This document shows positions 6,606-23,286 of a stretch of DNA of 62,530 bases, piece by piece. The stretch's first letter is position 1; the number at the start of each line of letters is the position of its first letter. The stretch is from positions 1 to 62,530 of the forward strand of contig CAYYWY010000012.1 of assembly GCA_964475485.1 (NCBI GenBank). Reading direction: 5' to 3'. The stretch comes from an uncultured Nitrospiraceae bacterium (GTDB lineage Bacteria; Nitrospirota; Thermodesulfovibrionia; Thermodesulfovibrionales; UBA9159). Under the pieces are notes generated by a model. The model was given only the letters and a program-made list of their open reading frames with translations, had not been told where the DNA came from and ran no database searches. The translations under genes and the position numbers were made by a program.

Positions 6606-7409
6606 TCACCCCTTTCCACGCAGGAGGCCCTTCAGCGGAACAACATAGTAACCCGGTGACACGCGGTATTGCTCTAGAAAGGCAAGAAGGATAGTCTCAG
6701 ACCCGAACATCGAATCCGTCATCAGTTCAAGCGAAAGGTCCAGACTATCCCCTCTCATGCTCCCCTTGACTCTTGCATATATGCCTGTTCCCGTCATCGT
6801 AAGGGACTTCACCTCCACCGAATCGCCATTCATTGTAGCAGCCCCCCGAATCTCATGAAAGAGATCAAGGGGGAGGAATACTCCGCCCAGAGAGGTGCTC
6901 TTCAATTTCGCGTCCCTTACCAAAAATTTCAGATCCCCTGTGTTGCTCTGCAGGACAAACGTTCCTGAAAGGATCCCTTCCCCATATATTCCCATCGGCT
7001 CTAAGAGGGGAATCCCGTTGATCGAGATATCGGCGCCGCTGATTGCGAGTTTGTCCTTCCCTGCAGTCCTGAGTAACCCTTTTATATTGCCGTTATTCAT
7101 CCTGCCTTCAAAACTCAGTTCCGGATTCAGTCTGAAAAGCGACGAAAGCTCAAGCCTGCCGTCCAGGTTACGGAAGACAAGCAGGGCATCGTCAATGCCA
7201 GTCGATGGATTTCTTTTCATAATTGTGATGCTGGCGGCGCTGAAATTGTAGAAGGACCCCTTTTTCACACCTTCGGTCCGGAGATAGAAGTAATCCTTGT
7301 TAAGGGCGCCTTCTATAAGGCCGGAAATGAGGCTCTCTGGTATCGCGATGAACCACAGAGCGGGTGTCAGAAACAGTGCTGCGGCTATGACATAGGCGCT
7401 CTTTTTCAC
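6606..7409 (-). CDS. gspN: Type II secretion protein N
   Basis: Last gsp gene after gspM; N-terminal TM and beta-rich periplasmic part. Confidence 0.75.
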   Translation of the reverse strand: MKKSAYVIAAALFLTPALWFIAIPESLISGLIEGALNKDYFYLRTEGVKKGSFYNFSAASITIMKRNPSTGIDDALLVFRNLDGRLELSSLFRLNPELSFEGRMNNGNIKGLLRTAGKDKLAISGADISINGIPLLEPMGIYGEGILSGTFVLQSNTGDLKFLVRDAKLKSTSLGGVFLPLDLFHEIRGAATMNGDSVEVKSLTMTGTGIYARVKGSMRGDSLDLSLELMTDSMFGSETILLAFLEQYRVSPGYYVVPLKGLLRGKG

Positions 7410-7909
7410 TTCCCGGTGAAAAGGGCGATGGTCATGGTGATATCGAGGAGTTCCGGTTTCTCGAAGGATCTTCTTATCGTCACCCTTTTAACAGAAAGGA
7501 TCATCGGGGCTTCATTTATCCGGTAAAACATGTTCACCAGCTCATTGAGCGTGAGTTTTTCCATCTGGACTTCGGCGCTCTCCTCCGCCATTGAGCCATG
7601 GATCTCCCTGTTGCCAACGGCCTTTACCGACTTCATCTTTCCCTTTATGCCAAGGGAAGATAGCAATGTATCCATCGCATCGGCAATTCCGCGCGTCTGT
7701 ATAATAGCGGACCTCTTCTCGACGGAATCGACGTTGTCTCTCAATGATCTGTATTCGCTGATCAGAGAGGACAATTCCTTCTTCTTAGCCCTGAGAGTAT
7801 CGAGCTCTTTTTTAGCCGACCTCTGCAAAAGGAGGGAAGGGATCAGAAGGATGAAGAGACCGAGGATTACGGAGGCAAGAGCTATGTTGGGGCGGCAACG
7901 AAGCATCAT
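7406..7909 (-). CDS. gspM: Type II secretion protein M
   Basis: TM, coiled coil and ferredoxin-like C-terminus; position after gspL. Confidence 0.75.
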   Translation of the reverse strand: MMLRCRPNIALASVILGLFILLIPSLLLQRSAKKELDTLRAKKKELSSLISEYRSLRDNVDSVEKRSAIIQTRGIADAMDTLLSSLGIKGKMKSVKAVGNREIHGSMAEESAEVQMEKLTLNELVNMFYRINEAPMILSVKRVTIRRSFEKPELLDITMTIALFTGK

Positions 7910-9003
7910 CTCTTCCCTTTCGCCACTATTGTGAAGAGGGTCTTTCCCCCGGCGGACGGTTTTATATCGGAAACGGATACATCCATGATTACGCCGGAGA
8001 GCCCTGTCCTTACCTTATCGATGTCGCTCATAGAAGAGGCCTCACCCTTCATTGTTATAAGGTCTCTGTCGAGGCTTATTTCGGCAAAGGCAATCCCGGT
8101 CGATGTCTTTTGTGAGAGGTCGAGGAGGAACTGGAGAGGATAGACGCCGATCATGGCATCTCCCTTCTCTTTGATAGCTTTCATGTGTGATTTCATCTGA
8201 TACACTTCATCAGCCACTGTCCTTTCATTGGGGAAAAGCCCGGAGTACATGTTCCGCAGCTCTCTCTTAAGTGAAGAGGCCTCATGTTTTGCGGTTACAG
8301 TGCCGAATGCAAGGTATGCGTGGACAAATAATGCCAGCGCAGTGGAAAGAACCGCAGTCAGTCTCAGTGTCTTTTTGACCTTTTCCATACCCTTTGTATA
8401 GGCGAAAGACCCCGTCCTCAAATTAATAGTGCGAGCCGAGAGTTCGGCGCCGGCAGCGCTTATCCTCTCTTCAGGCGTGAGTTCGCCGGGGTGAAGAAGC
8501 CTGAGGGCGATGTCTTCGGCTCCTCCCCTCGCAATCGTTCGAAGCTCAATAGATGTGACGGCCACGGGGTCTATCTGACGGCTGGACAGCCGGTCAAGCG
8601 TTTCTCTCAACAGATTCTTTTCGACATATGCCACCAGGACGTCGAATGCATCGCCTGAGCCGCCCAGCACTACGGCATCGAAGACAACGTTCTCCGCACT
8701 TCCCATGAGGAGATTCGAGAGTTCAAGGGGGATCACTCTCAGGAGCTTTTCCCTATCGGAGAAGGGGAGTTTCAGGACTCTGAAGTTCAGCAGCTCCACA
8801 GGGAGGCTGAGGATGTACTCGCCGACACCGGGCGAATTCAGGGAAGATGCGTCAAAGCCGTCGTACTTGATAACCTTCTCGAATGTGTAGGTTCCTGCCC
8901 GGCCGTTGAACACATAAACACTCCCCGTGAGCGAGTTGCCGGCTCCTTTAACGAGGTCAATGAATCCTATTTTACCCACTGTCGATCTCTGTAAATCGTC
9001 CAA
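7906..9003 (-). CDS. gspL: Type II secretion protein L
   Basis: Actin-like cytoplasmic part (FRVLKLPF), INLRTG motif, TM, PilN-like periplasmic domain. Confidence 0.8.
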   Translation of the reverse strand: MDDLQRSTVGKIGFIDLVKGAGNSLTGSVYVFNGRAGTYTFEKVIKYDGFDASSLNSPGVGEYILSLPVELLNFRVLKLPFSDREKLLRVIPLELSNLLMGSAENVVFDAVVLGGSGDAFDVLVAYVEKNLLRETLDRLSSRQIDPVAVTSIELRTIARGGAEDIALRLLHPGELTPEERISAAGAELSARTINLRTGSFAYTKGMEKVKKTLRLTAVLSTALALFVHAYLAFGTVTAKHEASSLKRELRNMYSGLFPNERTVADEVYQMKSHMKAIKEKGDAMIGVYPLQFLLDLSQKTSTGIAFAEISLDRDLITMKGEASSMSDIDKVRTGLSGVIMDVSVSDIKPSAGGKTLFTIVAKGKR

Positions 9004-9016
9004 TCGATCATGAGCG

Positions 9017-9946
9017 TTACATCTCCCTCCAATACCGTATCAAATTGGTGACGCCCTCAACAGTAACCACAGTTTCGATCGCTCTTTTCATCTTGTTTTC
9101 CTCGGAGACAGAGATAATACGGAAGTTTCTTGGAGGCGTTATCTGTCCTGCAAATATCCTGCTGCTTATGTTGTTGATCAGATCCTTGCTGAAGCCAGCC
9201 CTCTCCAGATCACCCTTGCCCTCAAAAGGCCTCAGCTTCCTCTGATTCACGACCTCTCTTGCCTGTTCCATAGATATTGATTCACTAAGTGACATTATAA
9301 CAGGTATTGAAGCGGTATTAATATTGACTCGTAAGTCTTCGCTTCCACCGTAGCCGTACACAGTAACATGTGGAGATAACGCCTCATATGTCTGAAGACC
9401 GATGCCTTTTATATGTAGCAATTCGTCAACACTGTCCATAAAAGCGTTCTTTGTGGTTTCCTTAGAGGAAATCAGCGCGGGTACGCTATCCTTGTTTATC
9501 CAAAAAGAAACTCTGTCTGCAATGCTTTCATCAAGTCCAAGGTTGCGGAGAAGCCTTCTAAATGCTTGGATATTACCCGGGGTTTTAAGGGAATTCATAT
9601 TGAATTTCCCGTTTTCGTCTTCTACGCTGACGACAACGGTACCGGAGAAGCCCTCAAGGATATTCTCTACAGGGATCACCATCTTCCCGGGGAATTTGTG
9701 AAGTTCATCCGAAGGGATGTCGGAGATGGTTGTGATCGCAAGAGAGACGCCTGATTTTGCGGCGAAAGAGAGTCTCAGCGAGTCCTTCCAGTTATAAAGG
9801 GCGGAGGTCGTCGTATATACTCCATAGGCGAATTCCACGACCATGGCGGTGATAAGAGTAAGGATCATGAGTGTCAGCACCAGCGCCATGCCTTTCTCTG
9901 AAGATGCATGAAGCGTGAAGCGTGAAGCGTGTAAGGAGCCCCTCAC
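9017..9946 (-). CDS. gspK: Minor pseudopilin K
   Basis: KG|MALVL cleavage site, DENGKFNMN, ELLHIKGI and NINTAS helix-hairpin motifs. Confidence 0.92.
   Translation of the reverse strand: MRGSLHASRFTLHASSEKGMALVLTLMILTLITAMVVEFAYGVYTTTSALYNWKDSLRLSFAAKSGVSLAITTISDIPSDELHKFPGKMVIPVENILEGFSGTVVVSVEDENGKFNMNSLKTPGNIQAFRRLLRNLGLDESIADRVSFWINKDSVPALISSKETTKNAFMDSVDELLHIKGIGLQTYEALSPHVTVYGYGGSEDLRVNINTASIPVIMSLSESISMEQAREVVNQRKLRPFEGKGDLERAGFSKDLINNISSRIFAGQITPPRNFRIISVSEENKMKRAIETVVTVEGVTNLIRYWREM
9909..9929. repeat. Heptamer tandem repeat (TGAAGCG)x3 in the gspK leader
   Basis: Read directly from sequence. Confidence 0.9.
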
Positions 9947-10584
9947 AACGCCTTCCCTATCCTGGGCCTCGCGATTTCCATGACGGCAAGATGGCTGCTC
10001 TCCTCCTTCGCCGCGACCTTGAGCGTGACCCTTATCTCGCCGGGCATTTTCTTTGACATGTCGCTATCCCATGTCTTTATCCATTTGCCGTTGTAGCCTG
10101 CCTCGATGGTGAAAGATTCAAGACCCTTCATCAATTCGAAGTCTTTTGTCCCGGAAGATTCGCCGTATGCGGTCTCCATCTTTTTCTTAAGCACAAGACT
10201 TCCTTCATTTTCTTCGACGGTGTATGATATCCTCGAAAGTCCGGGAGGCAAGGGCGTAAACGAGGTAAAAAGGAGTTGGGAGGCCTGCTTCCCGTAAAAA
10301 TCCCTGTCCTCGAGCTTAAAGACGGTATGCGTCTTTTCCGGGTTGTAGAGCGCGGATTCGAGCTCTCTCTTCAGGGTATCCAGAACAGACCGGCATTCCT
10401 GAAGTTTCAGGAGGGAATCGTCCACCGCATCCGCTGCCCTTTGTGAAAGGAAGAAGGTGCTGTAAAGAGCGGCGATCACCACGGCGGTTATTGCAACGGC
10501 AACGAGAACCTCGAGGAGCGTAAAGCCACGCACAGTGTCGAGAGTTGAGTGTCGAGTGTCGAGTGAAGTGTCTTTACTTTTCAC
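9943..10584 (-). CDS. gspJ: Minor pseudopilin J
   Basis: RG|FTLLEVLVA prepilin motif; gene order. Confidence 0.9.
   Translation of the reverse strand: MKSKDTSLDTRHSTLDTVRGFTLLEVLVAVAITAVVIAALYSTFFLSQRAADAVDDSLLKLQECRSVLDTLKRELESALYNPEKTHTVFKLEDRDFYGKQASQLLFTSFTPLPPGLSRISYTVEENEGSLVLKKKMETAYGESSGTKDFELMKGLESFTIEAGYNGKWIKTWDSDMSKKMPGEIRVTLKVAAKEESSHLAVMEIARPRIGKAL
10535..10562. repeat. Heptamer repeat GTGTCGA x4 (one degenerate) in the gspJ leader
   Basis: GTGTCGA GAGTTGA GTGTCGA GTGTCGA. Confidence 0.85.
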
Positions 10585-10597
10585 CTGAAGATACCTC

Positions 10598-10798
10598 TAT
10601 CCGTCATTGCGGCTTGTCCGCAATCCTTCCGACTTGTTCGGAACCGGAAGAAAGATTCTCGATGCGAGTCCCGAAGCGGGTCTCCGCGAAGGGTCGCTCC
10701 GACTTCGCTGAGAGTCGCTTCGACCCGGCAGGCCTGCCTACCGGACAGGCAGGCGGGAATGACAGTTTGTGTCGCCTTACTAATGACCGTATTAGTAA
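10598..10798. mobile_element. Composite REP/MITE-like element between gspI and gspJ
   Basis: TATCCGTCATTGCGG-CTTGT-CCGCAAT hairpin, nested GCCTGCCT-N7-AGGCAGGC (10732-10754), GGGAATGACAG end, and terminal palindrome TTACTAAT-N6-ATTAGTAA. Confidence 0.7.
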
Positions 10799-10803
10799 CA
10801 TCA

Positions 10804-11229
10804 TCATTTCTGTTTTCTGATAAGTTCAGAAAGCCTGACGCTTTCTTTGCCGTCAGAGACGGTCACCGATATCTCGGACATGCCTGGAAAGGAAGAATCC
10901 CTGACGGCAGTCTCATAGGAGAAGCTGGAATACGGTTCAGGGAACTGCCCCTTATCGGTCACCGGCTTCCTCTCCATTGCATACATTTTTTCCTTTGCGA
11001 GGCTTGCGGATGTGGTGATGATCCTGTGCCTTTCCGCAATTCCGAGGTGATAGTTCAAGGTGTATATCAGAGTGACAAGAAGTCCGCCCACTATAGCAAG
11101 GCTTATCATGACTTCGAGGAGGGTAAAGCCCCTCTTCGCAGTGACGCGTGACGCGTGATGCGTGACGTGTAAGAGAAATCTTCCCTTCCGGGCCTTGCAT
11201 TTCTTAATCATCAACTTGTCACTTGTCAC
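10804..11229 (-). CDS. gspI: Minor pseudopilin I
   Basis: RG|FTLLEVMISL prepilin motif; short; gene order. Confidence 0.9.
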   Translation of the reverse strand: MTSDKLMIKKCKARKGRFLLHVTHHASRVTAKRGFTLLEVMISLAIVGGLLVTLIYTLNYHLGIAERHRIITTSASLAKEKMYAMERKPVTDKGQFPEPYSSFSYETAVRDSSFPGMSEISVTVSDGKESVRLSELIRKQK

Positions 11230-11236
11230 TTGTCAC
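11141..11236. repeat. Inverted pair of heptamer arrays in the gspI leader and gspH end
   Basis: GTGACGC-type x4 at 11141-11168 and TTGTCAC x3 at 11216-11236. Confidence 0.9.
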
Positions 11237-11728
11237 TACCTTCACCCTTCCGCTCATATTGTTGAAGACGACCGACATATCCGCCTTATCATCCTTAAGG
11301 CGCACGGTGAAACTCTCCGATGCCCCAAACGGGCTGAAGAAGATAATGACCTCGCCATCGGAAACCATCCCCCTGGACTGTAGTTCTATTCCTGAAAGGG
11401 AATCGAATTTCTCGGACTTTTCTCCCTCAGGACTGTTGTAGCTTATGAGCCTGTCGCTGAAAACGGCCTTCATTTGAAGGGTCTCTTTCGTGGATATCGC
11501 ACTGTCGTTCAGATACCGGATTATGGAGCCAAGGCGTTTTGCATCGGATTTCAGTCTGCTCTCCCCGATCCCGGTAAAGGATGGGAGGGCGACCGCAAAC
11601 ACAAGGGAGACGATAAAGATCACGACCATCAATTCGAAAAGGGTGAAACCCGCGCGAGTAACGAGTAACGAGTAACGAGTAACGAGTGCCAATTCCTTAC
11701 CCTTGCTTTTCAACCTGTTACCCGTCAC
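11219..11728 (-). CDS. gspH: Minor pseudopilin H
   Basis: AG|FTLFELMVV prepilin motif; gene order. Confidence 0.88.
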   Translation of the reverse strand: MTGNRLKSKGKELALVTRYSLLVTRAGFTLFELMVVIFIVSLVFAVALPSFTGIGESRLKSDAKRLGSIIRYLNDSAISTKETLQMKAVFSDRLISYNSPEGEKSEKFDSLSGIELQSRGMVSDGEVIIFFSPFGASESFTVRLKDDKADMSVVFNNMSGRVKVVTSDK

Positions 11729-11735
11729 TTGTCAC
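11655..11735. repeat. Inverted pair of heptamer arrays in the gspH leader
   Basis: CGAGTAA x4 perfect at 11655-11682 and CTGTTAC CCGTCAC TTGTCAC at 11715-11735. Confidence 0.9.
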
Positions 11736-12241
11736 TGCCTTTGCATGTCCCAGCTCTTGATGTCTGCGTCCTTTCCCTCCCCGCCTTCCTTGCCGTCCGC
11801 GCCATAGCTCAGGATGTCGTAGTCCCCGTTCAGTCCTGGAGATACGTAAATATAAGGATTGCCCCACGGGTCTGTCGGGATCTTCTTCTGTTCCAGGTAT
11901 CCGCCTTCCTTGTAGTTCTGCGGCAACCGTCCGCTCGCCGGCTTTTCCACGAGGGCCTGAAGACCCTGCTGGGTATCGGGATAAAACCCGTTGTCCATCT
12001 TGAAAAGTTTGAGGGCCGTCTCGAAATTCCTTATCTGTACCTTCGCCTCCGCAATCCTTGCGTCATCCGTCCTGCCTATAATCCTCGGAGCCACGATTGC
12101 CGCGAGAAGACTCAGGATGAAGACGACGACAAGGATCTCAAGAAGGGTGAAGCCGCCACTCCCCTTGAATTCCCCCCTTGCCGAGGGGAAATATAGAGGT
12201 GTAGTTTTTGAATTTTTCATTTTGAATTTTGCATCTTGCAT
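11732..12241 (-). CDS. gspG: Major pseudopilin G
   Basis: GG|FTLLEILVV, GLQALVEKP, DPWGNPY, SYGADG motifs. Confidence 0.97.
   Translation of the reverse strand: MQDAKFKMKNSKTTPLYFPSARGEFKGSGGFTLLEILVVVFILSLLAAIVAPRIIGRTDDARIAEAKVQIRNFETALKLFKMDNGFYPDTQQGLQALVEKPASGRLPQNYKEGGYLEQKKIPTDPWGNPYIYVSPGLNGDYDILSYGADGKEGGEGKDADIKSWDMQRQ
12161..12241. repeat. CCCC/GGGG palindrome plus five heptamer units in the gspG leader
   Basis: Hairpin at 12161-12201; TTTGAAT TTTTCAT TTTGAAT TTTGCAT CTTGCAT at 12207-12241. Confidence 0.8.
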
Positions 12242-12265: not shown

Positions 12266-13441
12266 TCACTTTATCAACTGATTCAACTGGAACATCGGCA
12301 GCAGGACCGCAAGGACGATGAAAAGCACCACAAGCCCCATCACCAGTATCATGACAGGCTCGAAAAGGGAAACCGCGCCGTTCACCTTCCTGTTGAATTC
12401 CTCCTCATAGGACTGGGCTGCCCTGCTCAGGGTTTCGGGAAGCCTTCCGCTTTTCTCCCCGGTTGCGATGAGCCGAAGAAAGACCGGCGGAAAGCCTTCA
12501 AGCGTGGAAGAAAGGCTCTGACCCTCGGCTACTCTTCTCTCCGCATTCAGGACAGATTGCTCAAGCACCATGTTACCCATGGATTTTGCCGAAAGGCTCA
12601 ACGCCCTGAGCATGGGGAGCCCTCCCTCAAGAAGGAAACCGAGGTTCCTTGCGAAACGGTAGTAGTAGAGACTCTGGACCATGTTGCCCGGGAGTTTCAG
12701 AAGAATCCGGTCAACAAAAAGTCTGTGAGAAGTAAAGAGCTTCCTTAGTGATATCACTGCTCCGCCGGCAAGGCCCGCCAAAACCCACCAATAATTGACA
12801 AAGACATTGCTCACGATTATGAGGAATTGAGTGATGAGAGGCAGCGTTGCCTTTGTATCGTGGAAGATCTTCACGATCTTCGGGATTACGAAGGTGAAGA
12901 GAAAGGAGAGGATTACAATACTCACGCCCATCATTAGAGCAGGATATATCATGGATGAGCGCACCCTGGCTCTGACGGTATTCCGGCCTTCGAGAAAGTC
13001 TGCAAGTCTCATGAGGACCCTGTCCAGAGTACCGCTCTGCTCGCCGGAATGGACCATATTGATATAGAACTCCGGGAAGACGCGGCCAAAATCCTCCAGG
13101 GCCTTGGAAAGGCTGGAACCTCCTGCGACCTTTTCCTTTATCGCAATCAGCATCTCCATGTAAAAGCCCCTTCTCTCGGCAGACAGAGACTGGAGGGCGT
13201 CCATCAAGGGAACTCCTGATGAGAGGAGTATCGAAAGCTGCCGGGTCATGCCAGGGAGGAAGGATTCTTCAGTCCTCTGAAAAAGCCTTTTCTTTCCTGT
13301 TATCCTGGACTCGATGACCTCACTTGGGAAGACGCCCTCCGCCCTGACCCTGAGCATCGCGTCGTTCATGCCCGATGCCTCGATACTGCCGCTCACATCC
13401 CTGCCGTCTGCAGTGTATCCTCTATATCTGAATATCGGCAT
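12266..13441 (-). CDS. gspF: Type II secretion inner membrane platform protein F
   Basis: RQLSILLSSGVPL, SGEQSGTL, YP, GEKSGRL, EP duplicated T2SSF motifs. Confidence 0.96.
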   Translation of the reverse strand: MPIFRYRGYTADGRDVSGSIEASGMNDAMLRVRAEGVFPSEVIESRITGKKRLFQRTEESFLPGMTRQLSILLSSGVPLMDALQSLSAERRGFYMEMLIAIKEKVAGGSSLSKALEDFGRVFPEFYINMVHSGEQSGTLDRVLMRLADFLEGRNTVRARVRSSMIYPALMMGVSIVILSFLFTFVIPKIVKIFHDTKATLPLITQFLIIVSNVFVNYWWVLAGLAGGAVISLRKLFTSHRLFVDRILLKLPGNMVQSLYYYRFARNLGFLLEGGLPMLRALSLSAKSMGNMVLEQSVLNAERRVAEGQSLSSTLEGFPPVFLRLIATGEKSGRLPETLSRAAQSYEEEFNRKVNGAVSLFEPVMILVMGLVVLFIVLAVLLPMFQLNQLIK

Positions 13442-13574: not shown

Positions 13575-15134
13575 TTATTCGGCATAGTCCTTCTGCGTAA
13601 CCCTCAAAACCTCCTGGAGCGTGGTCTCTCCCTTCATCACCTTGTTAAGGCCGTCCGCGTAGAGGGTCTTCATGCCCCTTGAGGCCGCATGATCCTTGAT
13701 CGCCTGCGAATCCCTCCGGGAAGTGATCATCTCTCTAATCTCGGGACCTATATGGAGAAGCTCGAATATACCGGTCCTGCCAAGGTAGCCGCTCTGTCTG
13801 CAGCGGTCGCATCCCTTGCCGCGGTACAGCTTACTCCCCTTTGCTTCCCTGCCTGGCAAGGGGGGATTAATGAGGGTGGAGCTGATGAGGTAAGACCTTT
13901 CTGAATCGGGCGTTTCATATGTCTCTTTGCAGTAAGGGCAAATAGTCCTCACGAGTCTCTGTGCAAGGACGGCAACCAGAGACGATGCGACAAGGAAGGG
14001 TTCGACTCCCATATCGATAAGTCTTGTGACTGCGGAGGCGGAGTCATTGGTGTGCAGGGTGCTGAGCACGAGATGGCCTGTGAGGGATGCCTGAATAGCG
14101 ATCTCCGCCGTCTCGTAATCCCTTATCTCGCCCACCATGATCACGTCCGGGTCCTGCCTCAGAATCGACCTCAGTCCGGAAGCAAAAGTGAGACCTATTT
14201 TCGGATTCACATGGATCTGGCCCACGCCCCTGAGCTGATACTCGACAGGGTCCTCAACTGTTATGATGTTCTTTTCTTCCGTGTGTATCCTGTTCAGGGC
14301 TGCATAGAGAGTCGTTGTTTTGCCGCTTCCCGTGGGACCAGTAACGAGGATGATACCATTAGTCCTGGCGAGAAGTTCCTCAACACGCCTTATATCTTTT
14401 TCGTCAAGCCCGACCTCGTTAAGGCCTATCAGCCCCTGTTGCCTGTCCAGCAGCCTAAGAACAGCCCTTTCACCGAAAGAGGTGGGTACGATGGAAACCC
14501 TGATATCGATATCCTTCGTCCCGATGAGAAGCCGTATGCGGCCATCCTGGGGAAGCCTCTTTTCCGCGATATCCAGGTTTGCCATAATCTTCACTCTGCT
14601 TATGAGGGCGTCCTGAATGATTTTGGGAGGGGAGAGGACCCTGTGGAGGAGCCCGTCTATCCTCATTCTCACTTCCAGTTCCTTCTCGTAAGGTTCGATA
14701 TGGATATCGCTGGCCTTTTCCTTCACCGCCTGAAGGAGAAGGGCGTTGAGAAGCCGGATGATAGGGGCCTCTTCAGTGAGTTCAAGGAGGTCTCTGGGGG
14801 ATTCGAATTCCGTGGCGACCGCTGTGAGATCTTCCCCTGATATCCCTTCCATCACCTCCTCGGCGGAACCCAGATGACCATAAAACTTGTTGATCGCGTC
14901 CAGGACGATCCCCGGAAGAGCCTTCAGGGGTTGAGGTTTCAGACCGTATCTCTTTGCGAGGTCAAGCACGGCAAAGAGGCCCTTCTCATCGGCAACAGCA
15001 GCGATGAGGGAGCCGTCAGCCCTTTTCAAGGGCATGACAAGATTGTTCCTGGCAAAGGAAAGGGGAATTTCCTTTATGAGGGGGGTCTCTACATCCTCAT
15101 CCCGTATGGCATGAATTGTCTCCAAATCGTACAT
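13575..15134 (-). CDS. gspE: Type II secretion ATPase E
   Basis: ASDIHIEP, RLPQDGR, Walker A GPTGSGKTTT, RQDPDVIMVGEIRD, tetracysteine motif. Confidence 0.97.
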   Translation of the reverse strand: MYDLETIHAIRDEDVETPLIKEIPLSFARNNLVMPLKRADGSLIAAVADEKGLFAVLDLAKRYGLKPQPLKALPGIVLDAINKFYGHLGSAEEVMEGISGEDLTAVATEFESPRDLLELTEEAPIIRLLNALLLQAVKEKASDIHIEPYEKELEVRMRIDGLLHRVLSPPKIIQDALISRVKIMANLDIAEKRLPQDGRIRLLIGTKDIDIRVSIVPTSFGERAVLRLLDRQQGLIGLNEVGLDEKDIRRVEELLARTNGIILVTGPTGSGKTTTLYAALNRIHTEEKNIITVEDPVEYQLRGVGQIHVNPKIGLTFASGLRSILRQDPDVIMVGEIRDYETAEIAIQASLTGHLVLSTLHTNDSASAVTRLIDMGVEPFLVASSLVAVLAQRLVRTICPYCKETYETPDSERSYLISSTLINPPLPGREAKGSKLYRGKGCDRCRQSGYLGRTGIFELLHIGPEIREMITSRRDSQAIKDHAASRGMKTLYADGLNKVMKGETTLQEVLRVTQKDYAE

Positions 15135-15154
15135 CCCGAAAAAGCCTTAACTTC

Positions 15155-17314
15155 TTATTCCGAAGGCTTCAGCCTTATCTTGTAGTTCGGTTCAGCGTAC
15201 TGGACCTCCTCCATGGCAGAGAACTCCCTTACCGCGTCCCGAACGTCCTGTCCTTTCATGAGCCGTATGTGATATGCCTTGATTCCCTCCATGTAGGTGA
15301 TTACCGATCCGCCCGTCCTATTGATCAGCTTCCTCGCAGTATCGTCGGCGACCCCTTCTTTGAATTTCACGATAAGCTCGCCTTCGGCAAAACGGTTTTC
15401 ACTCATGCCGAACTCCTTCTGCTTTGTGTTCGTTATCTGTGCGAGGCGGTCCGATTCCTTGACGATATGGGGATTGAGGAAGACGAGGAGGTTTGTTTTC
15501 TTCTTCGAAACGCTCTTGTTCTTGAACAGATATCCCAGAAGAGGGATGTCGCCCAGCACAGGAACCTTTGTAACGTTCTCCTCTTCCGTCTCCTGCATCA
15601 GGCCTCCGATCACGACTATCTGGTTGTCCTTCACTACCACGGATGTCTTCGTGGAGCGCTTTGTGGTCGAAGGGCCGACATTGATTACGATAGTCTCCGA
15701 CTCCCTCTTCAATGAGGAGATCTCCTGATAGATGTCGAGCTTCACGTAATCCCCTTCGGTGATCTGGGGAGTGATCCTGAGCGTGATCCCGACGTCCTTT
15801 CTTTCGATGGAATTGAGGACCGTGTTGGCCGTAGTGATGTCCCTTTCACGCTTCGATATGAAAGGCACGTTCTCACCCACCACAATCTCAGCCTCCTTGT
15901 TGTCGGAGGTGAGTATCTGTGGCGTCGAGAGTACATTCACCACATCCCTGAATTCGTTCAGACTGAAAAGGGCGGCAAAGCCGGGCACCGTGAGGGTAGT
16001 GCTGACAGCCCTTCCGTCACTTGTGACCGTCGTCAGTGGCACATCGAGAAAATTCCCCATTCCGCCGAGGGTGACTCCTTCGAGACCGGTGATTACGGAC
16101 TGAAGCGCGGCAGAATCCATCGTACCGAACCCCCCTATGGCAACAGGCTCCCCGTTCTTTCTTCCGATGAGTCTCCATTTTGCTCCCAGTTCCCTCAGTT
16201 TGTCGATTGTTGCCTCAACGATCATCGCCTCAACGTACACCTGCCTTCTCCTCTTGTCCAGCTGTTTTATGACCTGCAGGAGGTTGTAGTAATCGGCAGG
16301 TGAGGCCACGATAACGAGTGCATTGGATGACTTGTCGGCTGTGATGTGTATCCCGCCGACTGCTTCAAAAGGAGTGACAGGAGCTGTTCCCGGCGCAGGT
16401 TGCTGCGGCCTCGCACCCTTCACAATGCCTTCAAGAACCTTTGCGAGTTCGGATGCATCTGCGTTTTCGAGGAAAAAGACGTTGATCCTCCCAAGGGCTT
16501 CAGGAGAGGGGATATCGATAAGGGAAATGAGGGATTTCATGGATTCCCGTGCTCCTTTGTCTCCGAAAAGGACGACGGCGTTCAGCCTCTGATCGGCCAC
16601 TGCCTTTATCTCATCCGAGGCGACCGGCTGGGGAGCGCCCCTGGCCCTGCGGCTCATGCCTTCATTAAGCATCTTTGCAAGTGCGTCTGCGCTGGAATAC
16701 TTAAGGAAGACGATCTCAGGGCCTTCCCTCATGGAGGGCTGGTCGATACTCTCCACTATGGAGAGTATCTTCTCTATGTTCAGCCCGGAGTCTATCACGA
16801 GAAGAAGGTTTCCCGGGCCAAAGGCGGAGGCATATCCGTCCTTTGAAACGATCGGCTGCAGGAATTTAAGGGCATCGTCGGAGGAGATATTCTTCAGAGG
16901 GATGAGTCTCACGATGTAACTCTCGTTTACAGGCTGCCTGTCCTTAGCTATTTCGAGCCCCCTCTGCTTCGCCTCGGCAGTGGGAATAATCTTGTACGCA
17001 TCGACACCAGAGGGAACCACCGTGAACCCCTTTAATTCAAGGACGGAAGTGAAAAGATTGTACGCCTCATCGATGCTCAGCTTTGATGGTGCGATGATCG
17101 TGATCTTCCCTTTTACGCGCTCGTCGAAGATGAAATTCTTCTTAGTAATGTCGCTTATGAATTTTGTGATGGTGGGAAGGTCGACATCCACAAAGTTGAA
17201 CGTCACCTTCTCTGTCTTCCTGGCATCGGGTTTCATCTCGGGAAATGAGGATGCCGCGGATATGAAAACGAAAATCAGAGAGACGCAGAAGGAAAAACGT
17301 TTAAGGTTCCTCAT
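15155..17314 (-). CDS. gspD: Type II secretion secretin D with an extra C-terminal domain
   Basis: N0-N3 domains, QVYVEAMIVE, DVGITLRITP, KVPVLGDIPLLGYLFK; about 78 extra C-terminal residues. Confidence 0.96.
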   Translation of the reverse strand: MRNLKRFSFCVSLIFVFISAASSFPEMKPDARKTEKVTFNFVDVDLPTITKFISDITKKNFIFDERVKGKITIIAPSKLSIDEAYNLFTSVLELKGFTVVPSGVDAYKIIPTAEAKQRGLEIAKDRQPVNESYIVRLIPLKNISSDDALKFLQPIVSKDGYASAFGPGNLLLVIDSGLNIEKILSIVESIDQPSMREGPEIVFLKYSSADALAKMLNEGMSRRARGAPQPVASDEIKAVADQRLNAVVLFGDKGARESMKSLISLIDIPSPEALGRINVFFLENADASELAKVLEGIVKGARPQQPAPGTAPVTPFEAVGGIHITADKSSNALVIVASPADYYNLLQVIKQLDKRRRQVYVEAMIVEATIDKLRELGAKWRLIGRKNGEPVAIGGFGTMDSAALQSVITGLEGVTLGGMGNFLDVPLTTVTSDGRAVSTTLTVPGFAALFSLNEFRDVVNVLSTPQILTSDNKEAEIVVGENVPFISKRERDITTANTVLNSIERKDVGITLRITPQITEGDYVKLDIYQEISSLKRESETIVINVGPSTTKRSTKTSVVVKDNQIVVIGGLMQETEEENVTKVPVLGDIPLLGYLFKNKSVSKKKTNLLVFLNPHIVKESDRLAQITNTKQKEFGMSENRFAEGELIVKFKEGVADDTARKLINRTGGSVITYMEGIKAYHIRLMKGQDVRDAVREFSAMEEVQYAEPNYKIRLKPSE

Positions 17315-17345: not shown

Positions 17346-18215
17346 TCATCTGATCTGGTATGTCATGGTCATCCTCGAACCGCCTCTCAGAAGGTCGACC
17401 TGGACCCTGTCCATTCCCCTGAGTGCAGTAAACGCCTGGAGGGCGTTCTCTGGATTCGAGATATTATACTCATTTATGCGCAAAAGGACATCTCCGTTCT
17501 GGAGTCCAAGGCTCTGATAAATACCGCCGCTCTTTACCTCACGGAGGATGAAGCCTTCCTGTTTGCCGTTAACAAGGTTGGGCTGGAGCCTTGCGTCCGT
17601 CATAAGCTGATTGGGGTTTTCCAGCGCATGGAGTATCCTCTTCTGGTCGAGGATAAAAAGTCCGCTTCCTGCGCTCCTTGCAAAAGCAGATCCGCTCGCC
17701 TCGGCCTCCCTGGGATTCAGCTCCTTTATTGTGAGCATTTCTGCCAGCGGAATCCTTATCTCCCTGCCGCCTTCTGTTATGACAGCCCTGTCCTTTTCGA
17801 CTCTCTTCAATTTCCCGGCACCAAAGACCGACTCGCCGATTCTGAACACCTCCTGTTTGCCAGCCTTGTCTGCAAATATGGCATAACTGAAAACAGGAGG
17901 TCCGGCGATGGTGCCCACGAGCGTAATGTCTGAGTGTGATACCGCTCCTTCCCTCGTTACAGAGAGTTCCTTCAACTCTCCACCGGGAAATCCAAAGGGA
18001 TTGCTTTTAAGGATGCTGGCGTATTCCTGGAGCCCCATCTTCACCTTTCGGGTGCTGGCCTGAGCGGGTGGGGAGGGTCTTTCTGTTCTCCTCAGAGAGT
18101 GGGAGAGGATGTCCCGGATGAAGATGAGGATGACGATAGTCAATAAAAGGGCGATAATCACATTAAGGGTAACAGGCAGTCCGGGATACCTGTATATGAA
18201 ATCTGTCCTGTCCAT
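17346..18215 (-). CDS. gspC: Type II secretion protein C with PDZ domain
   Basis: TM, HR domain (LVGTI...AIF), PDZ (LGLQNGDVLLRIN). Confidence 0.92.
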   Translation of the reverse strand: MDRTDFIYRYPGLPVTLNVIIALLLTIVILIFIRDILSHSLRRTERPSPPAQASTRKVKMGLQEYASILKSNPFGFPGGELKELSVTREGAVSHSDITLVGTIAGPPVFSYAIFADKAGKQEVFRIGESVFGAGKLKRVEKDRAVITEGGREIRIPLAEMLTIKELNPREAEASGSAFARSAGSGLFILDQKRILHALENPNQLMTDARLQPNLVNGKQEGFILREVKSGGIYQSLGLQNGDVLLRINEYNISNPENALQAFTALRGMDRVQVDLLRGGSRMTMTYQIR

Positions 18216-18413
18216 GGCAAACCTTAAGAATTATAAACAAAGGAGCGGCATTTTTACAATTTGAACGGGTCGAAAGCCTGTTCCTTACTTAATCATGGCT
18301 ACGACAAAGTCCCTGCCCCCGGTCTCTCTTGCCATTGCCGGTGTTGCCATTTCTTCAAGAAGCACACACAATACTTTGATATAATAGTAGAGTATGAGGG
18401 CCGGGAGGATCAG

Positions 18414-19730
18414 ATGAGTCCAGAAGCAAGAATGCTGAAGGTCCTACTCGCCATCAGAAATCCCCCTGAAGAGCTGCTGACGGTACTGAAAGGCCAGCAA
18501 CTCGATACCCTCCCCGAAGGGGAGTCCCTTCCCGGGTACGTCGCCAAGAATAATTATCATCTAATCCTTCTTGATGGCGGCGTAGAGTCTATCCCGTCAA
18601 TTAAAGCTGCAGACCCAAGGGCAGAGATTATCCTGTTCAAGAAAGGGGAGGAGGACTTCATCGAGGCGGTGAGACATGGTGCATCAGCATGCTTCACCGT
18701 TCCTGTTGAGACGGAGAGGCTCAGGGAGGCTGTTGTAAGAATACAGGATATGGCAGAGATGAGGAGGGAGACCGCTGAGCTTGAGAGACTCCTGAGCAGC
18801 AAGTATACGTTTGCCGGCATTATAGGCAAGAACCCCCAGATGCTTGATATCTTTTCTTTCATTGCCCATATCGCTCCGTATTACAGGACGGTCACCATAA
18901 TGGGGGAAACCGGCTCCGGCAAGGAAGTGATCGCAAAAGCGATTCATGCCTTAAGCCCCGCGGCTAAGAACCCCTTTATTGTATGCAACTGCGGCGGATT
19001 TGTTGAAGACCTGATCGAGTCTGAGCTCTTCGGGCACAAGAAGGGTTCGTTCACAGGCGCCGTGACCGATAAGGTGGGTCTTTTCGAGGCCGCAGGAGAA
19101 GGCACGATATTCCTTGATGAGATAGGCGAACTTCCCCTCTCATTCCAGCCTCATTTTCTCAGAGTGCTGGAGAACGGGGAGTTCAAGAAGGTAGGCAGCA
19201 ACCAGATGTCCAAGGCGAGGTGCCGTGTGATTGCGGCGACAAACAGGGACCTGCGGACAAAGGTTAAGGAGGGAAGATTCAGGGAGGATCTTTTCTTCAG
19301 GCTCACTCGCTTGACTGTCGAAGTCCCCCCCCTCCGAGACAGAAAGGATGACATACTCCTTTTGAGCCGCCATCTCCTGGACAGATTCAACGAGCGCTCC
19401 GGCAAGAGGATCTTCGGCATCTCAAGACCGGCCCAGTCGGCCCTCATGCGCCACAACTGGCCGGGCAACGTGAGGGAGCTCGAGAACGTGATCGAAGAAG
19501 CAGCCATCCTCACAACCGAATCCTTTATACGCCTCCAGGACCTCCCTTCATACATCAGGGAGTCCGGCAATAGTGAAAGTCCTTTACTAATGAGCCTGAG
19601 CGAGATGGAGAAGAGACACATCCAGACAGTTCTTCAGCAATGCGGTAACAACCGGACAAGAGCGGCTGAAGTCCTCGGAATCAGCAGAAGGGCTCTCTTG
19701 AGGAGGATCGAGAAGTTCGGCATGAGATAG
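18414..19730 (+). CDS. Sigma54-dependent Fis-family activator with a degenerate receiver domain
   Basis: [37 protein letters not shown]-terminal HTH. Start ATG 18414 follows GGAGGA. Confidence 0.92.
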
Positions 19731-19998: not shown

Positions 19999-20042
19999 CT
20001 TCCTATAGGCAAATGCAAGGAAAGGGAAAGGAGGAGAAGGAA

Positions 20043-21659
20043 ATGAAAACGAAATTGACAGCAGGCTTGGTTGGTTTATTGGCAGGTCTCGTTTTTTCGA
20101 CTTATGCACTGGGCGCGATAAGTATCGATACGCCGACATTCAACCAGCCCAGTGGATTCGCACTGTATGATGGCGGGAACTACGATTTCGGGCATGCTAT
20201 GGCGACGCAGCAGGACGGTAAAATAGTGGTGGCAGGAGGACGCTCAAACGGAATCAATAACGATATTCTGGTTTTGAGGTTTCATAGCGGCGGCAGTCTC
20301 GATAAGACCTTCGGCTCGGGGGGGGTCGTAACTTACGACAGCGGCGACGATGATTATGCATATGCCGTTGCCATTCAGGCGGACGGCAGAATAGTTGTTG
20401 CAGGCGGGAGCTACAACGGAGACGACTATGACATCACGGTTCTGAGACTTAATGACGACGGCACCCTTGACGGTACCTTTGGTTCTGCGGGCGTGGCCGT
20501 CTATGACGGTGAAAACGACTTTGGATACGGGATGGCCATCCAGGCAGACGGCAGGATAGTGGTCGTCGGTGGCACGTATAAAGGAACCAGCAGTGATGCC
20601 CTCATGGTGAGGTTTCAGAGCAACGGCGCCCTTGACAATACCTTTGGCGCTGCCGGGGCCGTGACCTACAACGGAGGAGGCCATGATTATGCCCATGCAG
20701 TCGCCATTCAGGCGGACGGCAAGATCGTGGTAGTGGGAGAGAGCAGCAACGGTATGGACTGTGACATCCTTGTGCTGAGGCTTCTCAGCAACGGAAGCAC
20801 CGACAACGGTTTCGGAATCGGGGGCATCGTGAAGTATAACAGCGGTGATGATGAATGCGGCTACGCAGTTGCAGCGTTGGCGGACGGCAGGATCATTGTT
20901 ACGGGATGCCTGCATAACGGGATTAACTGCGATGCGCTGATAATGAGGTTGAACGCAAACGGCAGCATCGACAAAACCTTCGGTACCGGCGGGATTGCCG
21001 TATACGACAGGGGTTATGATGAGCTTGCCTATGCGGCAGCCGTGCAGCCCGACGGCAAGATAGCCGTTGCAGGTTCTGTTTTTGACGGAGTTAATTCGGA
21101 CGGGCTGGTGTTGAGATTCAATGCGAGCGGCACACTTGACAACACTTTTGGTGCGGGAGGCTATATCAGCTACGTAATCGGTAATAACGTATATGGAAGC
21201 GCAGTCGCCTTACAGCCTGACGGCAAGATCATAGTCGCAGGCACCAGCGACAACGGTACGGACTATGACGTATTCGTTTTGAGACTCGCTGAAATACAGA
21301 TGCCTGATCTCGTGGTCTCCTCCATCGCTGCATTGGCGTGGCGCGCGGGAACGAACCTGACCGCTCTAACAGTGAGTTTTAGGGTAAAGAACCAGAGTTC
21401 AGCCGGTGCGGCCCCTTCCACCGTCAAGTTTTATCTCTCAAGGGATATGATACTGGGAGGGAGCGACATCTATCTGGGATCGGCGGCGATAGCATCCCTC
21501 GCGGCAGGCAGGGAAACAGCGTTGGGCACAATGAACTTCAGGATATCGGTGCCGGCATCCGGGGCATGGTATATCCTCGGGGTGGCTGATGCGAATGACG
21601 AGGTTGTCGAGGGCAATGAGACAAACAACGCGAAGGGAACAATAGTTACAGTGAAGTAG
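20043..21659 (+). CDS. Secreted delta-60-repeat beta-propeller protein with C-terminal CARDB-like domain
   Basis: Signal peptide; seven QxDGKIVVAG repeats, most followed by RFxxxGxLDxTFG; PDLVV...VKNQ...FYLS...ExNETNN tail. Confidence 0.88.
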   Translation: MKTKLTAGLVGLLAGLVFSTYALGAISIDTPTFNQPSGFALYDGGNYDFGHAMATQQDGKIVVAGGRSNGINNDILVLRFHSGGSLDKTFGSGGVVTYDSGDDDYAYAVAIQADGRIVVAGGSYNGDDYDITVLRLNDDGTLDGTFGSAGVAVYDGENDFGYGMAIQADGRIVVVGGTYKGTSSDALMVRFQSNGALDNTFGAAGAVTYNGGGHDYAHAVAIQADGKIVVVGESSNGMDCDILVLRLLSNGSTDNGFGIGGIVKYNSGDDECGYAVAALADGRIIVTGCLHNGINCDALIMRLNANGSIDKTFGTGGIAVYDRGYDELAYAAAVQPDGKIAVAGSVFDGVNSDGLVLRFNASGTLDNTFGAGGYISYVIGNNVYGSAVALQPDGKIIVAGTSDNGTDYDVFVLRLAEIQMPDLVVSSIAALAWRAGTNLTALTVSFRVKNQSSAGAAPSTVKFYLSRDMILGGSDIYLGSAAIASLAAGRETALGTMNFRISVPASGAWYILGVADANDEVVEGNETNNAKGTIVTVK

Positions 21660-21756: not shown

Positions 21757-21843
21757 ATGAAAATCTTTGACCTTTCCTTCTTCCTGCCTGACGGGCCTGC
21801 TGTGTGGAGCGCGGAGGGACAGACCATGAGGGCTTTCATATGA
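21757..21843 (+). pseudogene. 28-codon upstream ORF, possible cyclase-family N-terminal remnant
   Basis: MKIFDLSFFLPDGPAVWSAEGQTMRAFI*; starts 5 nt after TATAAT; its TGA overlaps the kinase ATG. Confidence 0.35.
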
Positions 21844-23264
21844 TAAGGACCTTCTTTCTGAATCTTTCCCTGAACAAGAAACTCGTCCTGATGATGCTCT
21901 TCTTGAGTTCCGTACTTCTTTCGATTCTTGTCTTCCTGTATTGGCAGTCCGAAAAGGCTCTCCTTAATGAACTGGGCAACCAGACGGCGGAGCTATCAAA
22001 GGCGATTCAGGTGGGAGTGGAGGAGGTAACCGCTATGGGCTTTACTGATGAAACCAGGCTCGCCCAATACCTGAAGGGCCTCAATTCCAAAGGGATAAAC
22101 GAGATCTCGATTATCAGCAATACCGACGAGATAATCGCAAGCACGAATCCTACGAAGGTGGGGGCTGCCCTTACCCCGAAAAAGAAGGAACTGGTGATAA
22201 AGGCCGAACTGGGTGAACCGGTCTCGAAGGAAGGGAAGACATATAACGTAATCGTTCCGGTTATTGCCGGGGAAGCCCATTACGGATATATACACCTGAA
22301 GATCAACGCGGATGATGTTTCGACGCTGCTCAAGCACAATCTGATAAAGAGGATTTTCGGGGCGCTCCTGGTATTCGGTATCGGTATCGGCATCGCCATC
22401 TTCCTTTCAGTAAGATATACCGAGCCGATACACAGCGTGGTCGATGCGGCCAAGAAGGTGGCTGCTGGCGATTTCAACCAGAATCTGACGGCTGACAGAA
22501 AAGACGAGATAGGCGAGCTTACGGCGAGCTTCAACCACATGGTCAGGAAACTGAGGGAGAACAAGCTCCTTGAGGAGAGGCTCCGGGAGGCCGAACACCT
22601 TTCCGCGATCGGCCAGCTGTCGAGCACCATTGCCCATGAGATACGGAACCCCCTGAACTTCATAAGTCTCAGCATCGATCATATCAGGGAGAAGTACCGC
22701 CCGGAGAAGGCCGAGGATCGGGAGAACTTCGTCGCCCTTGTATCAAGCATAAAACAGGAGATACACCGTCTCAACAGACTCGTGAATGACTTCCTGGACT
22801 ACGGCAAGCCGCTTAAGCTGAATCTGAAGCGCGTAAGCATCGGCGGAGTGCTTGGCGACTTGGTGGAGATTATCCGGGCTAAGGCGGAAGCTGAAAAGGT
22901 GGAGATAGCGAGCGACTACGCCTTCTCCCCCGAAGTCAGGATCGATCCCGAGCTTATGAAGACGTGCATCCTCAATATTGTGACCAACGCCTTTCAGGCG
23001 ATGCCCGGTGGCGGCACTCTCACCATCAGGACGGAGAACAATGATGGGAGATTTGTTCTGACCGTAAGTGACACGGGTACAGGCGTGGCAAAGGAAAACC
23101 TGCCGAAGGTGTTCGAACCATTTTTTTCAACGAAGAGCAACGGACTTGGTCTCGGGCTTGCAACAACGAAGCGCATAGTTGAAGAGCACGGCGGGAAAAT
23201 AGATTTCTACTCTGGGGAAGGTGAGACGGGCAGCACGGTAACCATCAGCCTGCCTTTGTTATGA
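21840..23264 (+). CDS. HAMP-domain sensor histidine kinase
   Basis: Two TMs, HAMP (DEIGEL), AHEIRNPL H-box, N/G1/F/G2 boxes. Confidence 0.95.
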   Translation: MIRTFFLNLSLNKKLVLMMLFLSSVLLSILVFLYWQSEKALLNELGNQTAELSKAIQVGVEEVTAMGFTDETRLAQYLKGLNSKGINEISIISNTDEIIASTNPTKVGAALTPKKKELVIKAELGEPVSKEGKTYNVIVPVIAGEAHYGYIHLKINADDVSTLLKHNLIKRIFGALLVFGIGIGIAIFLSVRYTEPIHSVVDAAKKVAAGDFNQNLTADRKDEIGELTASFNHMVRKLRENKLLEERLREAEHLSAIGQLSSTIAHEIRNPLNFISLSIDHIREKYRPEKAEDRENFVALVSSIKQEIHRLNRLVNDFLDYGKPLKLNLKRVSIGGVLGDLVEIIRAKAEAEKVEIASDYAFSPEVRIDPELMKTCILNIVTNAFQAMPGGGTLTIRTENNDGRFVLTVSDTGTGVAKENLPKVFEPFFSTKSNGLGLGLATTKRIVEEHGGKIDFYSGEGETGSTVTISLPLL

Positions 23265-23286
23265 TGATTTTGGAGGGGAGCTGTCA

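Follow-up and report, generated by a model that had tools for sequence, protein, structure and literature searches.

In the secretins of type II secretion systems (T2SSs) the S-domain consists of helix alpha-11 plus the C-terminal pilotin-binding helix alpha-12 (PMC6532946, in the part available to us), and secretin C-termini are usually seen as pilotin handles or as disordered tails. Here we analyse the secretin gene gspD (15155..17314, minus strand; an open reading frame, ORF, of 719 amino acids plus stop) on a stretch of 62,530 nt from an uncultured Nitrospiraceae bacterium (contig CAYYWY010000012.1), the whole of which is referred to below as the window. Its product is of the same family as the GspDs of the Klebsiella and Vibrio type (with pilotins PulS/OutS and AspS/EpsS) and shares their operon and their domain order up to the first S-domain helix; unlike them, it has a folded prodomain module of 75-80 amino acids in place of the distal S-domain. 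The N-terminal prodomains of S8 proteases (fervidolysin 1R6V, the subtilisin BPN'/E prosegments, family PF22148) are homologous to this tail in sequence and fold and have the same conserved columns, but the tail ends a secretin without protease domain, is never cleaved from a protease and falls into separate tree lineages. POIA1 (I9-type) and ORF2, the chaperone of the Aeromonas sobria protease (ASP), have the same fold as the tail and both act in trans on a subtilase; in contrast to them the tail is covalently fixed to a secretion channel, has no match to the Pfam peptidase inhibitor I9 profile at E <= 1 (only PF22148 and a weak PF16361 match were found), and any inhibition or chaperoning by it is putative. 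Among the cargoes of T2SSs is the Lif-dependent lipase. Lif itself, the lipase foldase of Burkholderia and Pseudomonas, is a periplasm-tethered and cargo-specific steric chaperone for a secreted enzyme (PMC3352829, in excerpt); unlike the GspD tail it has an unrelated fold, is anchored in the inner membrane and is no part of the secretin. A GspD secretin with a C-terminal domain of this kind is unprecedented. The initial annotation, made from the sequence alone, had stated that the architecture was not known from the literature, and this holds in that a full-text search (supplements aside) gave no paper that describes or discusses secretins ending in a prodomain. It may be noted that the combination of secretin and PF22148 is already visible in precomputed Pfam annotations.

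The profile TIGR02517 (GspD, NCBIfam) spans residues 39-628 of the protein with E 4.4e-163 and 543.9 bits against a cut-off of 351.35. Within this span Pfam places an N0 domain (PF21305, residues 39-109), three Secretin_N domains (PF03958) and the Secretin core (PF00263, E 1.2e-49; residues 459-619, 15458..15940, minus strand). After the core a proximal S-domain segment with linker is retained (residues 620-641, 15392..15457, minus strand), with one predicted helix, and the chain then continues as the subtilase-prodomain-like module (residues 642-719, 15158..15391, minus strand; stop at 15155-15157). These last 78 residues read exactly as quoted in the initial annotation, the frame is unbroken with the tail in frame with the secretin core, and the gspE start lies 21 nt past the gspD stop. 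PF22148 (Fervidolysin_NPro-like) matches residues 630-710 with E 2.5e-16 and a score of 60.2 bits where the cut-off is 21, which is far beyond chance. The chain has no match to PF00082 (S8), and the prodomain module stands at its C-terminus instead of N-terminal to a protease. AlphaFold2 was run on the last 100 residues with an alignment (A1) of 81 distinct orthologous tails, and gave a confident core of beta-alpha-beta-beta-alpha-beta order with a block pLDDT (predicted local distance difference test) of 88-94. The first 22 and last 7 residues of the model have pLDDT below 50, the linker helix (model residues 7-15) being likewise of low pLDDT, and the folded core reaches to about residue 711, followed by the disordered peptide KIRLKPSE. 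Foldseek against the PDB ranked the subtilisin prosegments 3cnq_P, 1scj_B and 1spb_P at the top (TMt 0.74-0.76, root-mean-square deviation 2.1-2.4 A). In VIA-align the first seven places were taken by prodomains of convertases or subtilisins (Z 8.7-9.7, root-mean-square deviation 2.4-2.7 A over 68-76 aligned residues), with Z 9.4-9.5 for 1spb, 3cnq and 1scj, whereas generic RRM-like folds scored lower (Z about 7-7.6), as did fervidolysin 1r6v (7.0), POIA1 1v5i_B (7.5) and the ASP chaperone ORF2 3wqb_B (7.8). A sequence-profile search of the PDB alone was weak (1r6v best at E 0.04, 1spb_P at E 0.07), and a protein atlas search with residues 600-719 gave no usable match; the fold is assigned because of the Pfam match and the structure comparison. 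The tail has a true subtilase-prodomain fold and does not model as an ordinary S-domain in AlphaFold2, as the initial annotation had supposed on both counts.

On what the tail replaces, GspD residues 561-645 align to the solved GspDs 5wq7 (residues 514-598 of 627) and 6i1x (residues 422-496 of 524). The solved chains run on for about 28-50 residues past the end of the alignment near residue 645, a stretch with no counterpart in the window GspD, which lacks a complete S-domain with the pilotin-binding helix. From these alignments the window GspD reads as keeping the proximal S-domain helix, the prodomain module apparently replacing the distal pilotin-binding part. By analogy with the solved secretins (PMC6532946, in excerpt) the expected place of the tail is the outer face of the barrel on the periplasmic side, under the outer membrane and not in the channel, a placement that limits the picture drawn in the initial annotation of a tail docking a passing cargo. 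The main rival to the reading favoured below, which we consider possible though doubtful, is a structural or assembly role without any protease. The prodomain fold would then have been recruited as a compact domain at the C-terminus for the tasks of the S-domain: it could stabilise the 15-mer or set its spacing, help outer-membrane targeting where there is no classical pilotin, or make contact with peptidoglycan or another envelope partner. The module lies exactly where the pilotin-binding alpha-12 lies in classical secretins (PMC6532946, same excerpt), no pilotin of the PulS/OutS type (PF09691) was found in the window genome at E <= 1 in a search that did not extend to AspS-type pilotins, and a protein belt around the Deinococcus T2SS secretin has been reported (PMC10828601, in the part available). 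Further points on both sides of a structural role arise from the conservation pattern, the distribution and the relatives of the module, and are given with those results.

The conservation pattern is that of a prodomain. Numbered as in A1, the residues F32, E84, V85, A88, E89, P90 and Y92 have an invariance of 90% or more over the 81 tails, while identity to the window tail goes down to 21%. We regard it as settled that the module is a real prodomain, old and under purifying selection. A single-profile alignment was made of 97 domains linked to secretins, 70 N-terminal prodomains of S8 proteases and 90 domains that stand alone, and the strongly conserved columns coincide across the three groups: Y..GELLVKFK, several Gly, V..A...F/Y, V.YAEPNY, and then I-x-K/R-I-Q. 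The last of these, the peptide after YAEPNY, is disordered in the model (pLDDT below 50) yet kept in sequence and length. The Glu and Asp of the turn equivalent to YAEPNY presumably cap two subtilisin helices. Conserved only in secretin tails are hydrophobic positions of helix 1 and strand 2, Tyr in column 42 and Glu in column 64, which count in favour of a structural role. In the aligned sequences the positions shared with real prodomains dominate the pattern. A structural role leaves the prodomain-like conservation of the disordered C-terminal peptide and of the YAEPNY turn unexplained.

The ends of the chains cluster. After E-P-N the tail ends with 6 residues in 44 of the 81 cases, with 7 in 9 and with 9 in 13, the window tail being among these 13. 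In the structural alignment model residue 97 (N+6, Lys716) falls on residue 77 of the 1spb prosegment, its last, which we take to be the P1 residue of the autoprocessing site. If the count is instead made back from the conserved PND motif of the S8 protease of the window genome, the equivalence shifts by one residue. On the model, most tails would end within about one residue of the processed prosegment end, and we claim this only to that precision. The clustering of the ends at N+6 is another feature that a structural role does not explain.

The fusion was followed through the phylum with a sample of 401 Nitrospirota genomes searched with GspD residues 540-719. Counts were made by hand on the listed matches that run from the secretin core through the tail, with 929 weaker matches outside the list, and are therefore lower bounds. 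The fusion was found in all 3 genomes of the same family, in at least 51 of 114 of the same order (50 in this search plus G037, whose tail was found with a whole-protein search), in at least 13 of 17 of the same class (Thermodesulfovibrionia), against at least 1 of 266 genomes of other classes (G050, with an in-frame TAA). A second survey searched 40 relatives with the whole GspD. Among its 18 same-family genomes the match reaches residues 713-719 in 14, is cut by contig ends in 3, and one genome is without orthologue; of the 22 genomes from other families of the order, 14 have a full-length match, the orthologue of G019 stops at 636, and 7 have no orthologue. The four Pfam domains, PF22148 among them, are also found together in four further clusters at 90% identity. 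Named records put the fused clade in Nitrospirota, Thermodesulfovibrionia/Thermodesulfovibrionales (labels including Dissulfurispiraceae and Candidatus Sulfobium), and a few submitter labels among the fused records name other phyla.

The fetched loci gave 104 orthologue ORFs (some genomes were fetched twice), of which 98 are fused. In the others the tail is in a separate frame (L064, L098), an early stop follows the core (L029, L062, L070), or the sequence is diverged (L081). The broken cases would suit an assembly artefact or a decaying relic without function, an explanation so improbable that it may practically be set aside, since the same in-frame fusion is present in about 80 independent species-level assemblies and the signature residues stay invariant while overall identity falls so far. 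The fusion is a trait of a whole Nitrospirota class and no assembly artefact, and the concern raised with the initial annotation that it might be unique to this assembly has been removed. As almost all orthologues have the tail, with or without an S8 gene close by, the distribution also favours a structural role. Gene fission as a general compensation for tail loss was considered for G019, which has the tail-less GspD together with a stand-alone prodomain protein of 119 amino acids (L030:884-1243), encoded 63 bp upstream of an S8 gene of 2336 amino acids. It was rejected because four other searched genomes of that genus have no such gene and because the protein is only about 35% identical to the window tail.

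When the last 91 residues of GspD were searched against 1.84 billion representative proteins, 529 matches were obtained at E <= 0.001, and the best 150 of these were classified with profiles built for this analysis. In this best-150 set the module stands alone in 83 proteins, precedes an S8 domain in 36, follows a secretin in 9, is present twice on a secretin in 2 and flanks an S8 domain on both sides in 5, the remaining 15 being other multi-domain S8 forms. Three of the 83 prodomain-only matches are secretin fragments. The 80 that are left are mostly small (69 have at most 160 amino acids); 55 have a signal-peptide-like hydrophobic start and 18 a lipobox-like motif, and most prodomain-only proteins (for example P0015, P0026, P0035, P0048) end 6-11 residues after E-P-N. 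By their sequences these small proteins may be membrane-tethered S8 inhibitors or chaperones, and as candidate trans-acting relatives of the tail they count in favour of its binding S8s in trans. Pfam confirmed the secretins with one or two modules. In two of them, P0022 and P0007, one or two modules are followed by long acidic or polar linkers and a C-terminal sequence of the SPOR (peptidoglycan-binding) type. The SPOR match at the C-terminus of P0022 (880 amino acids) is weak; an extension of a related secretin tail by such a domain fits a structural role, whereas the tandem copies on long low-complexity linkers in P0007 resemble tethered binding modules and not a rigid ring. Pfam also showed that the S8 proteases P0011, P0034, P0036 and P0040 have a second prodomain-like module at the extreme C-terminus, and this copy is the part of them most similar to the GspD tail. 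It follows a CFIATAA-type motif and a hydrophobic segment, and in P0036 it follows a CFI-box-CTERM domain that matches NF041770.

A FastTree phylogeny of the domains placed the secretin tails in a few largely pure clades of 56, 22, 6 and 4 tips (support 0.68-0.91). These lie apart from the S8 N-terminal clades, which hold the S8 prodomains of the class itself, and group with the small stand-alone proteins and the C-terminal copies behind the CFI box. Support in the domain tree is modest (0.49-0.89), and the sequences were chosen by similarity to the tail. Recent copying of the tail from the S8 prodomain of the window genome is not supported, as the clade's S8 prodomains cluster with other S8 prodomains. 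The grouping is one reason to consider that the tail binds a partner other than an S8 protease, such as a pilotin-like lipoprotein or a component that sorts Cys-tagged proteins, using the prodomain sheet as a generic surface, and the positions conserved only in secretin tails are another. We find this quite unlikely: no candidate was identified, the positions shared with real prodomains outweigh the secretin-specific ones, and both the support of the tree and the selection of its sequences limit what can be drawn from it.

In the window genome PF22148 has 2 matches, the GspD tail and an S8 protease on contig C18, and S8 likewise has 2, on contigs C18 and C24. The C18 protease (L003:715-2826, minus strand; 704 amino acids) has a lipobox signal, a prodomain of its own, the S8 domain (about residues 129-475) and fn3 repeats, and it ends in GGGGGC, a hydrophobic helix and RRKRR. 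The Cys of this tag and the Ile that follows it are nearly invariant among 13 related S8s. The N-terminal lipobox would remain with the prodomain after autoprocessing. Directly downstream is a gene for a Rce1-like/CPBP protein of 167 amino acids (PF02517), whose best NCBIfam matches are all myxosortases (MrtS 1.5e-17, Mrt_core 2e-14 and others), all of them below the curated cut-offs. In proteins of the MYXO-CTERM type an invariant Cys is combined with a transmembrane helix and a tail rich in Arg; myxosortase, a CPBP protease, cleaves them, and they depend on the T2SS for surface delivery (PMC11980579, in the part available); GlyGly-CTERM proteins are similar, and Synerg-CTERM is linked to a divergent T2SS cassette (bioRxiv 10.1101/2023.06.07.544157, in excerpt). 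The S8 of the window genome resembles the MYXO-CTERM/myxosortase and GlyGly-CTERM/rhombosortase (VesB) systems in its Gly run, Cys, hydrophobic helix and Arg/Lys cluster and in its CPBP neighbour, and from sequence the two genes (C18; L121:4256-7035, minus strand) look like a pair of sorting enzyme and target in Nitrospirota. Unlike the known myxosortases the CPBP protein stays below every curated cut-off, and the S8 tag of relatives is of the CFI-box type: NF041770 (CFI_box_CTERM) was found in the S8 of G034 as well as in P0036, and is not listed for the S8 of the window genome. The literature searched gave no mention of 'CFI-box-CTERM'. To our knowledge no system of the MYXO-CTERM or GlyGly-CTERM type has a prodomain on its secretin.

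The second S8 gene (C24, L004) is in a record with masked stretches. About 108 residues without Pfam match precede its catalytic domain, and still further upstream is a signal-peptide-like start; four CarboxypepD_reg/SdrD_B-like repeats follow. The initial annotation had suggested looking for S8 proteases, especially any lacking a propeptide, and the idea of such propeptide-less proteases was not borne out, as the main S8 has its own prodomain and the second has the unassigned N-terminal extension. Another idea is that the tail is a trans-acting foldase and not an inhibitor or tether. It would be a steric chaperone at the secretin that finishes the folding of an S8 cargo, in the way that the Aeromonas sobria protease is served by ORF2. 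The complex of ASP with ORF2 is among the fold matches, prodomains are classed as steric chaperones (PMC3352829, in excerpt), and the second S8 has no recognised prodomain family. Nevertheless the idea is very unlikely in our judgement, given that the extension of the second S8 may be its own prodomain, that the S8s linked to the operon all have their own PF22148 prodomain, and that a chaperone held in place beneath the outer membrane would come upon its client only at a late stage.

In relatives the S8 genes come close to the secretion operon. The gsp operon of G029 and G254 is flanked, on its own strand, by genes for S8 lipoproteins (NPro+S8+fn3), and such an S8 gene lies between gspF and gspG in G034 and G206. 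The distal S8 of G029, at the end of the gsp cluster, has a CPBP gene directly next to it. At least 13 of 80 named loci, for which only 2.5-kb flanks were covered, show the 3' portion of an S8 gene immediately upstream of gspC and on its strand. These recurrent S8 genes at the operon are unexplained by a structural role of the tail. S8 was found in 101 of 141 genomes of the class sample and in 36 of the 39 fused genomes with readable S8 status; it is also found in at least 16 genomes without the fusion, and the association is confounded by kinship and by the presence of a T2SS. The proposed link of the tail to an S8 protease has indirect support, because S8 genes of the same family lie in or beside the gsp operon of relatives and because prodomain positions are conserved in the tail. 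Two observations on these loci may be added. In G206 one open frame of 882 amino acids (L118:7178-9823) encodes NPro, S8, fn3, an N-methylation motif and a T2SSG pseudopilin domain, and is either a real S8-GspG fusion or the result of a missing stop between two genes in the assembly. Upstream of the S8 genes in G029 and G025 (L115:16779-18917, L120:348-2132) is a cassette for a lipoprotein of about 205 amino acids without family match and a Big_1/invasin-like Ig lipoprotein.

We infer that the tail is a secretin-tethered, 'already cleaved' prodomain that binds exported S8 proteases, a tentative reading to which we give a probability of roughly 0.45. Binding of S8s in trans is the most economical explanation because it accounts together for the prodomain-like surface and peptide, for chain ends like those of a cleaved prosegment, and for the recurrent S8 genes at the operon. 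In such a mechanism the distal pilotin-binding S-domain would have been swapped for a fervidolysin-type subtilase prodomain, and fifteen copies, if the usual secretin stoichiometry applies, would be held on short linkers outside the barrel on the periplasmic side, just under the outer membrane. The tail resembles a prodomain already cut off, since it keeps the fold, the turn YAEPNY and a short C-terminal peptide of basic/hydrophobic character, and it would bind in trans the catalytic domain of S8 surface proteases handled by this T2SS. These would-be clients combine a lipobox, a prodomain of their own, the S8 domain and fn3 repeats with a C-terminal sorting tag that contains Cys, and a gene for a myxosortase-like CPBP protein adjoins theirs. 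A bound S8 may be held inactive and kept at the secretion machine, and the binding may also shield the secretin; inhibition, tethering, secretin protection and a hand-over step are the candidate outcomes. Of this mechanism the fold, the conservation, the distribution over the clade and the gene neighbourhood are results of the analysis, whereas the topology, the binding and what follows from it are predictions. A stronger version is rather unlikely as a whole, in which a ring of about 15 'pre-cleaved' prodomains would capture lipid-tagged S8s freed from their own membrane-anchored prodomain, silence them until export and substitute for the pilotin contact.

Several observations weigh against binding of S8s by the tail. 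The equivalence to P1 has an uncertainty of about one residue and lies on a low-confidence part of the model, and the window tail carries three extra residues. P0022 and P0007 carry the module internally, with long linkers and SPOR, or in tandem; therefore a free C-terminus at a P1-like position is not universal. If solved secretins are a guide, a tail outside the barrel and far from the cargo entry would be unable to reach cargo within the channel. In the window genome the S8 is on another contig and not near gspD. No S8 match was found at E <= 1 in three fused genomes, G026 (100% complete), G313 (99%) and G293 (97%), all draft metagenome-assembled genomes, and these also fit a structural role; two congeners of G026 do have S8. 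The domain tree does not group the tails with the S8 prodomains of the same clade and seems to give no pointer to recent exchange or co-evolution. Finally the genus g14 lost the tail and retains S8 genes, with no consistent stand-alone replacement; that a genus could lose the tail and keep the secretin speaks against a structural role too.

In place of a pilotin handle or a disordered end, these secretins have a protease-control domain across a Nitrospirota class. If the tail does bind exported S8s, it would be the first case in which a secretion channel has an inhibitor or tether for a specific cargo as part of itself, and would tie together T2SS assembly, zymogen control and the CPBP sorting of Cys-tagged surface proteins. 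A ring of inhibitors would moreover couple secretion and zymogen control in one protein, which is undescribed for any secretin. If the role is purely structural, a prodomain fold can replace an S-domain, which bears on how pilotin-less secretins reach the outer membrane or are stabilised in it in little-studied phyla.

The operon around gspD is complete and on one strand, with gspC upstream and gspE, F, G, J, K and L-like genes downstream. On the minus strand are gspC (17346..18215; T2SSC PF11356, E 1.5e-13, plus a weak PDZ match), the gspE ATPase gene (13575..15134; PF00437, E 1e-144), gspF (12266..13441; PF00482, E 1.1e-59) and gspG (11732..12241; T2SSG). The stretch 6606..12241, also on the minus strand, holds gspG, three more pseudopilin genes (one of them T2SSJ), gspK, a gspL-like gene and two ORFs, with matches to T2SSG, N_methyl, T2SSJ, T2SSK and, weakly, GspL_C. 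The two ORFs are at the usual positions of gspM and gspN and have no family match in Pfam. Antisense to the gspD tail are two plus-strand ORFs (15116-15715 and 15297-15728). A sigma-54 activator gene (18261-19730, plus strand) is divergent from gspC, and a histidine kinase and a sigma-54 response regulator are encoded nearby (21804-24669, plus strand); from these neighbours it may be predicted that the gsp operon is under sigma-54 control. A protein of 548 amino acids adjoining the T2SS locus (20013-21659, plus strand) has seven DUF5122 beta-propeller repeats and a CARDB domain and is possibly a secreted or surface protein. Other secretin-like matches, in the window genome (G000:C3:80673-81542) and in several relatives, have 1-3 in-frame TGA codons within long open frames.

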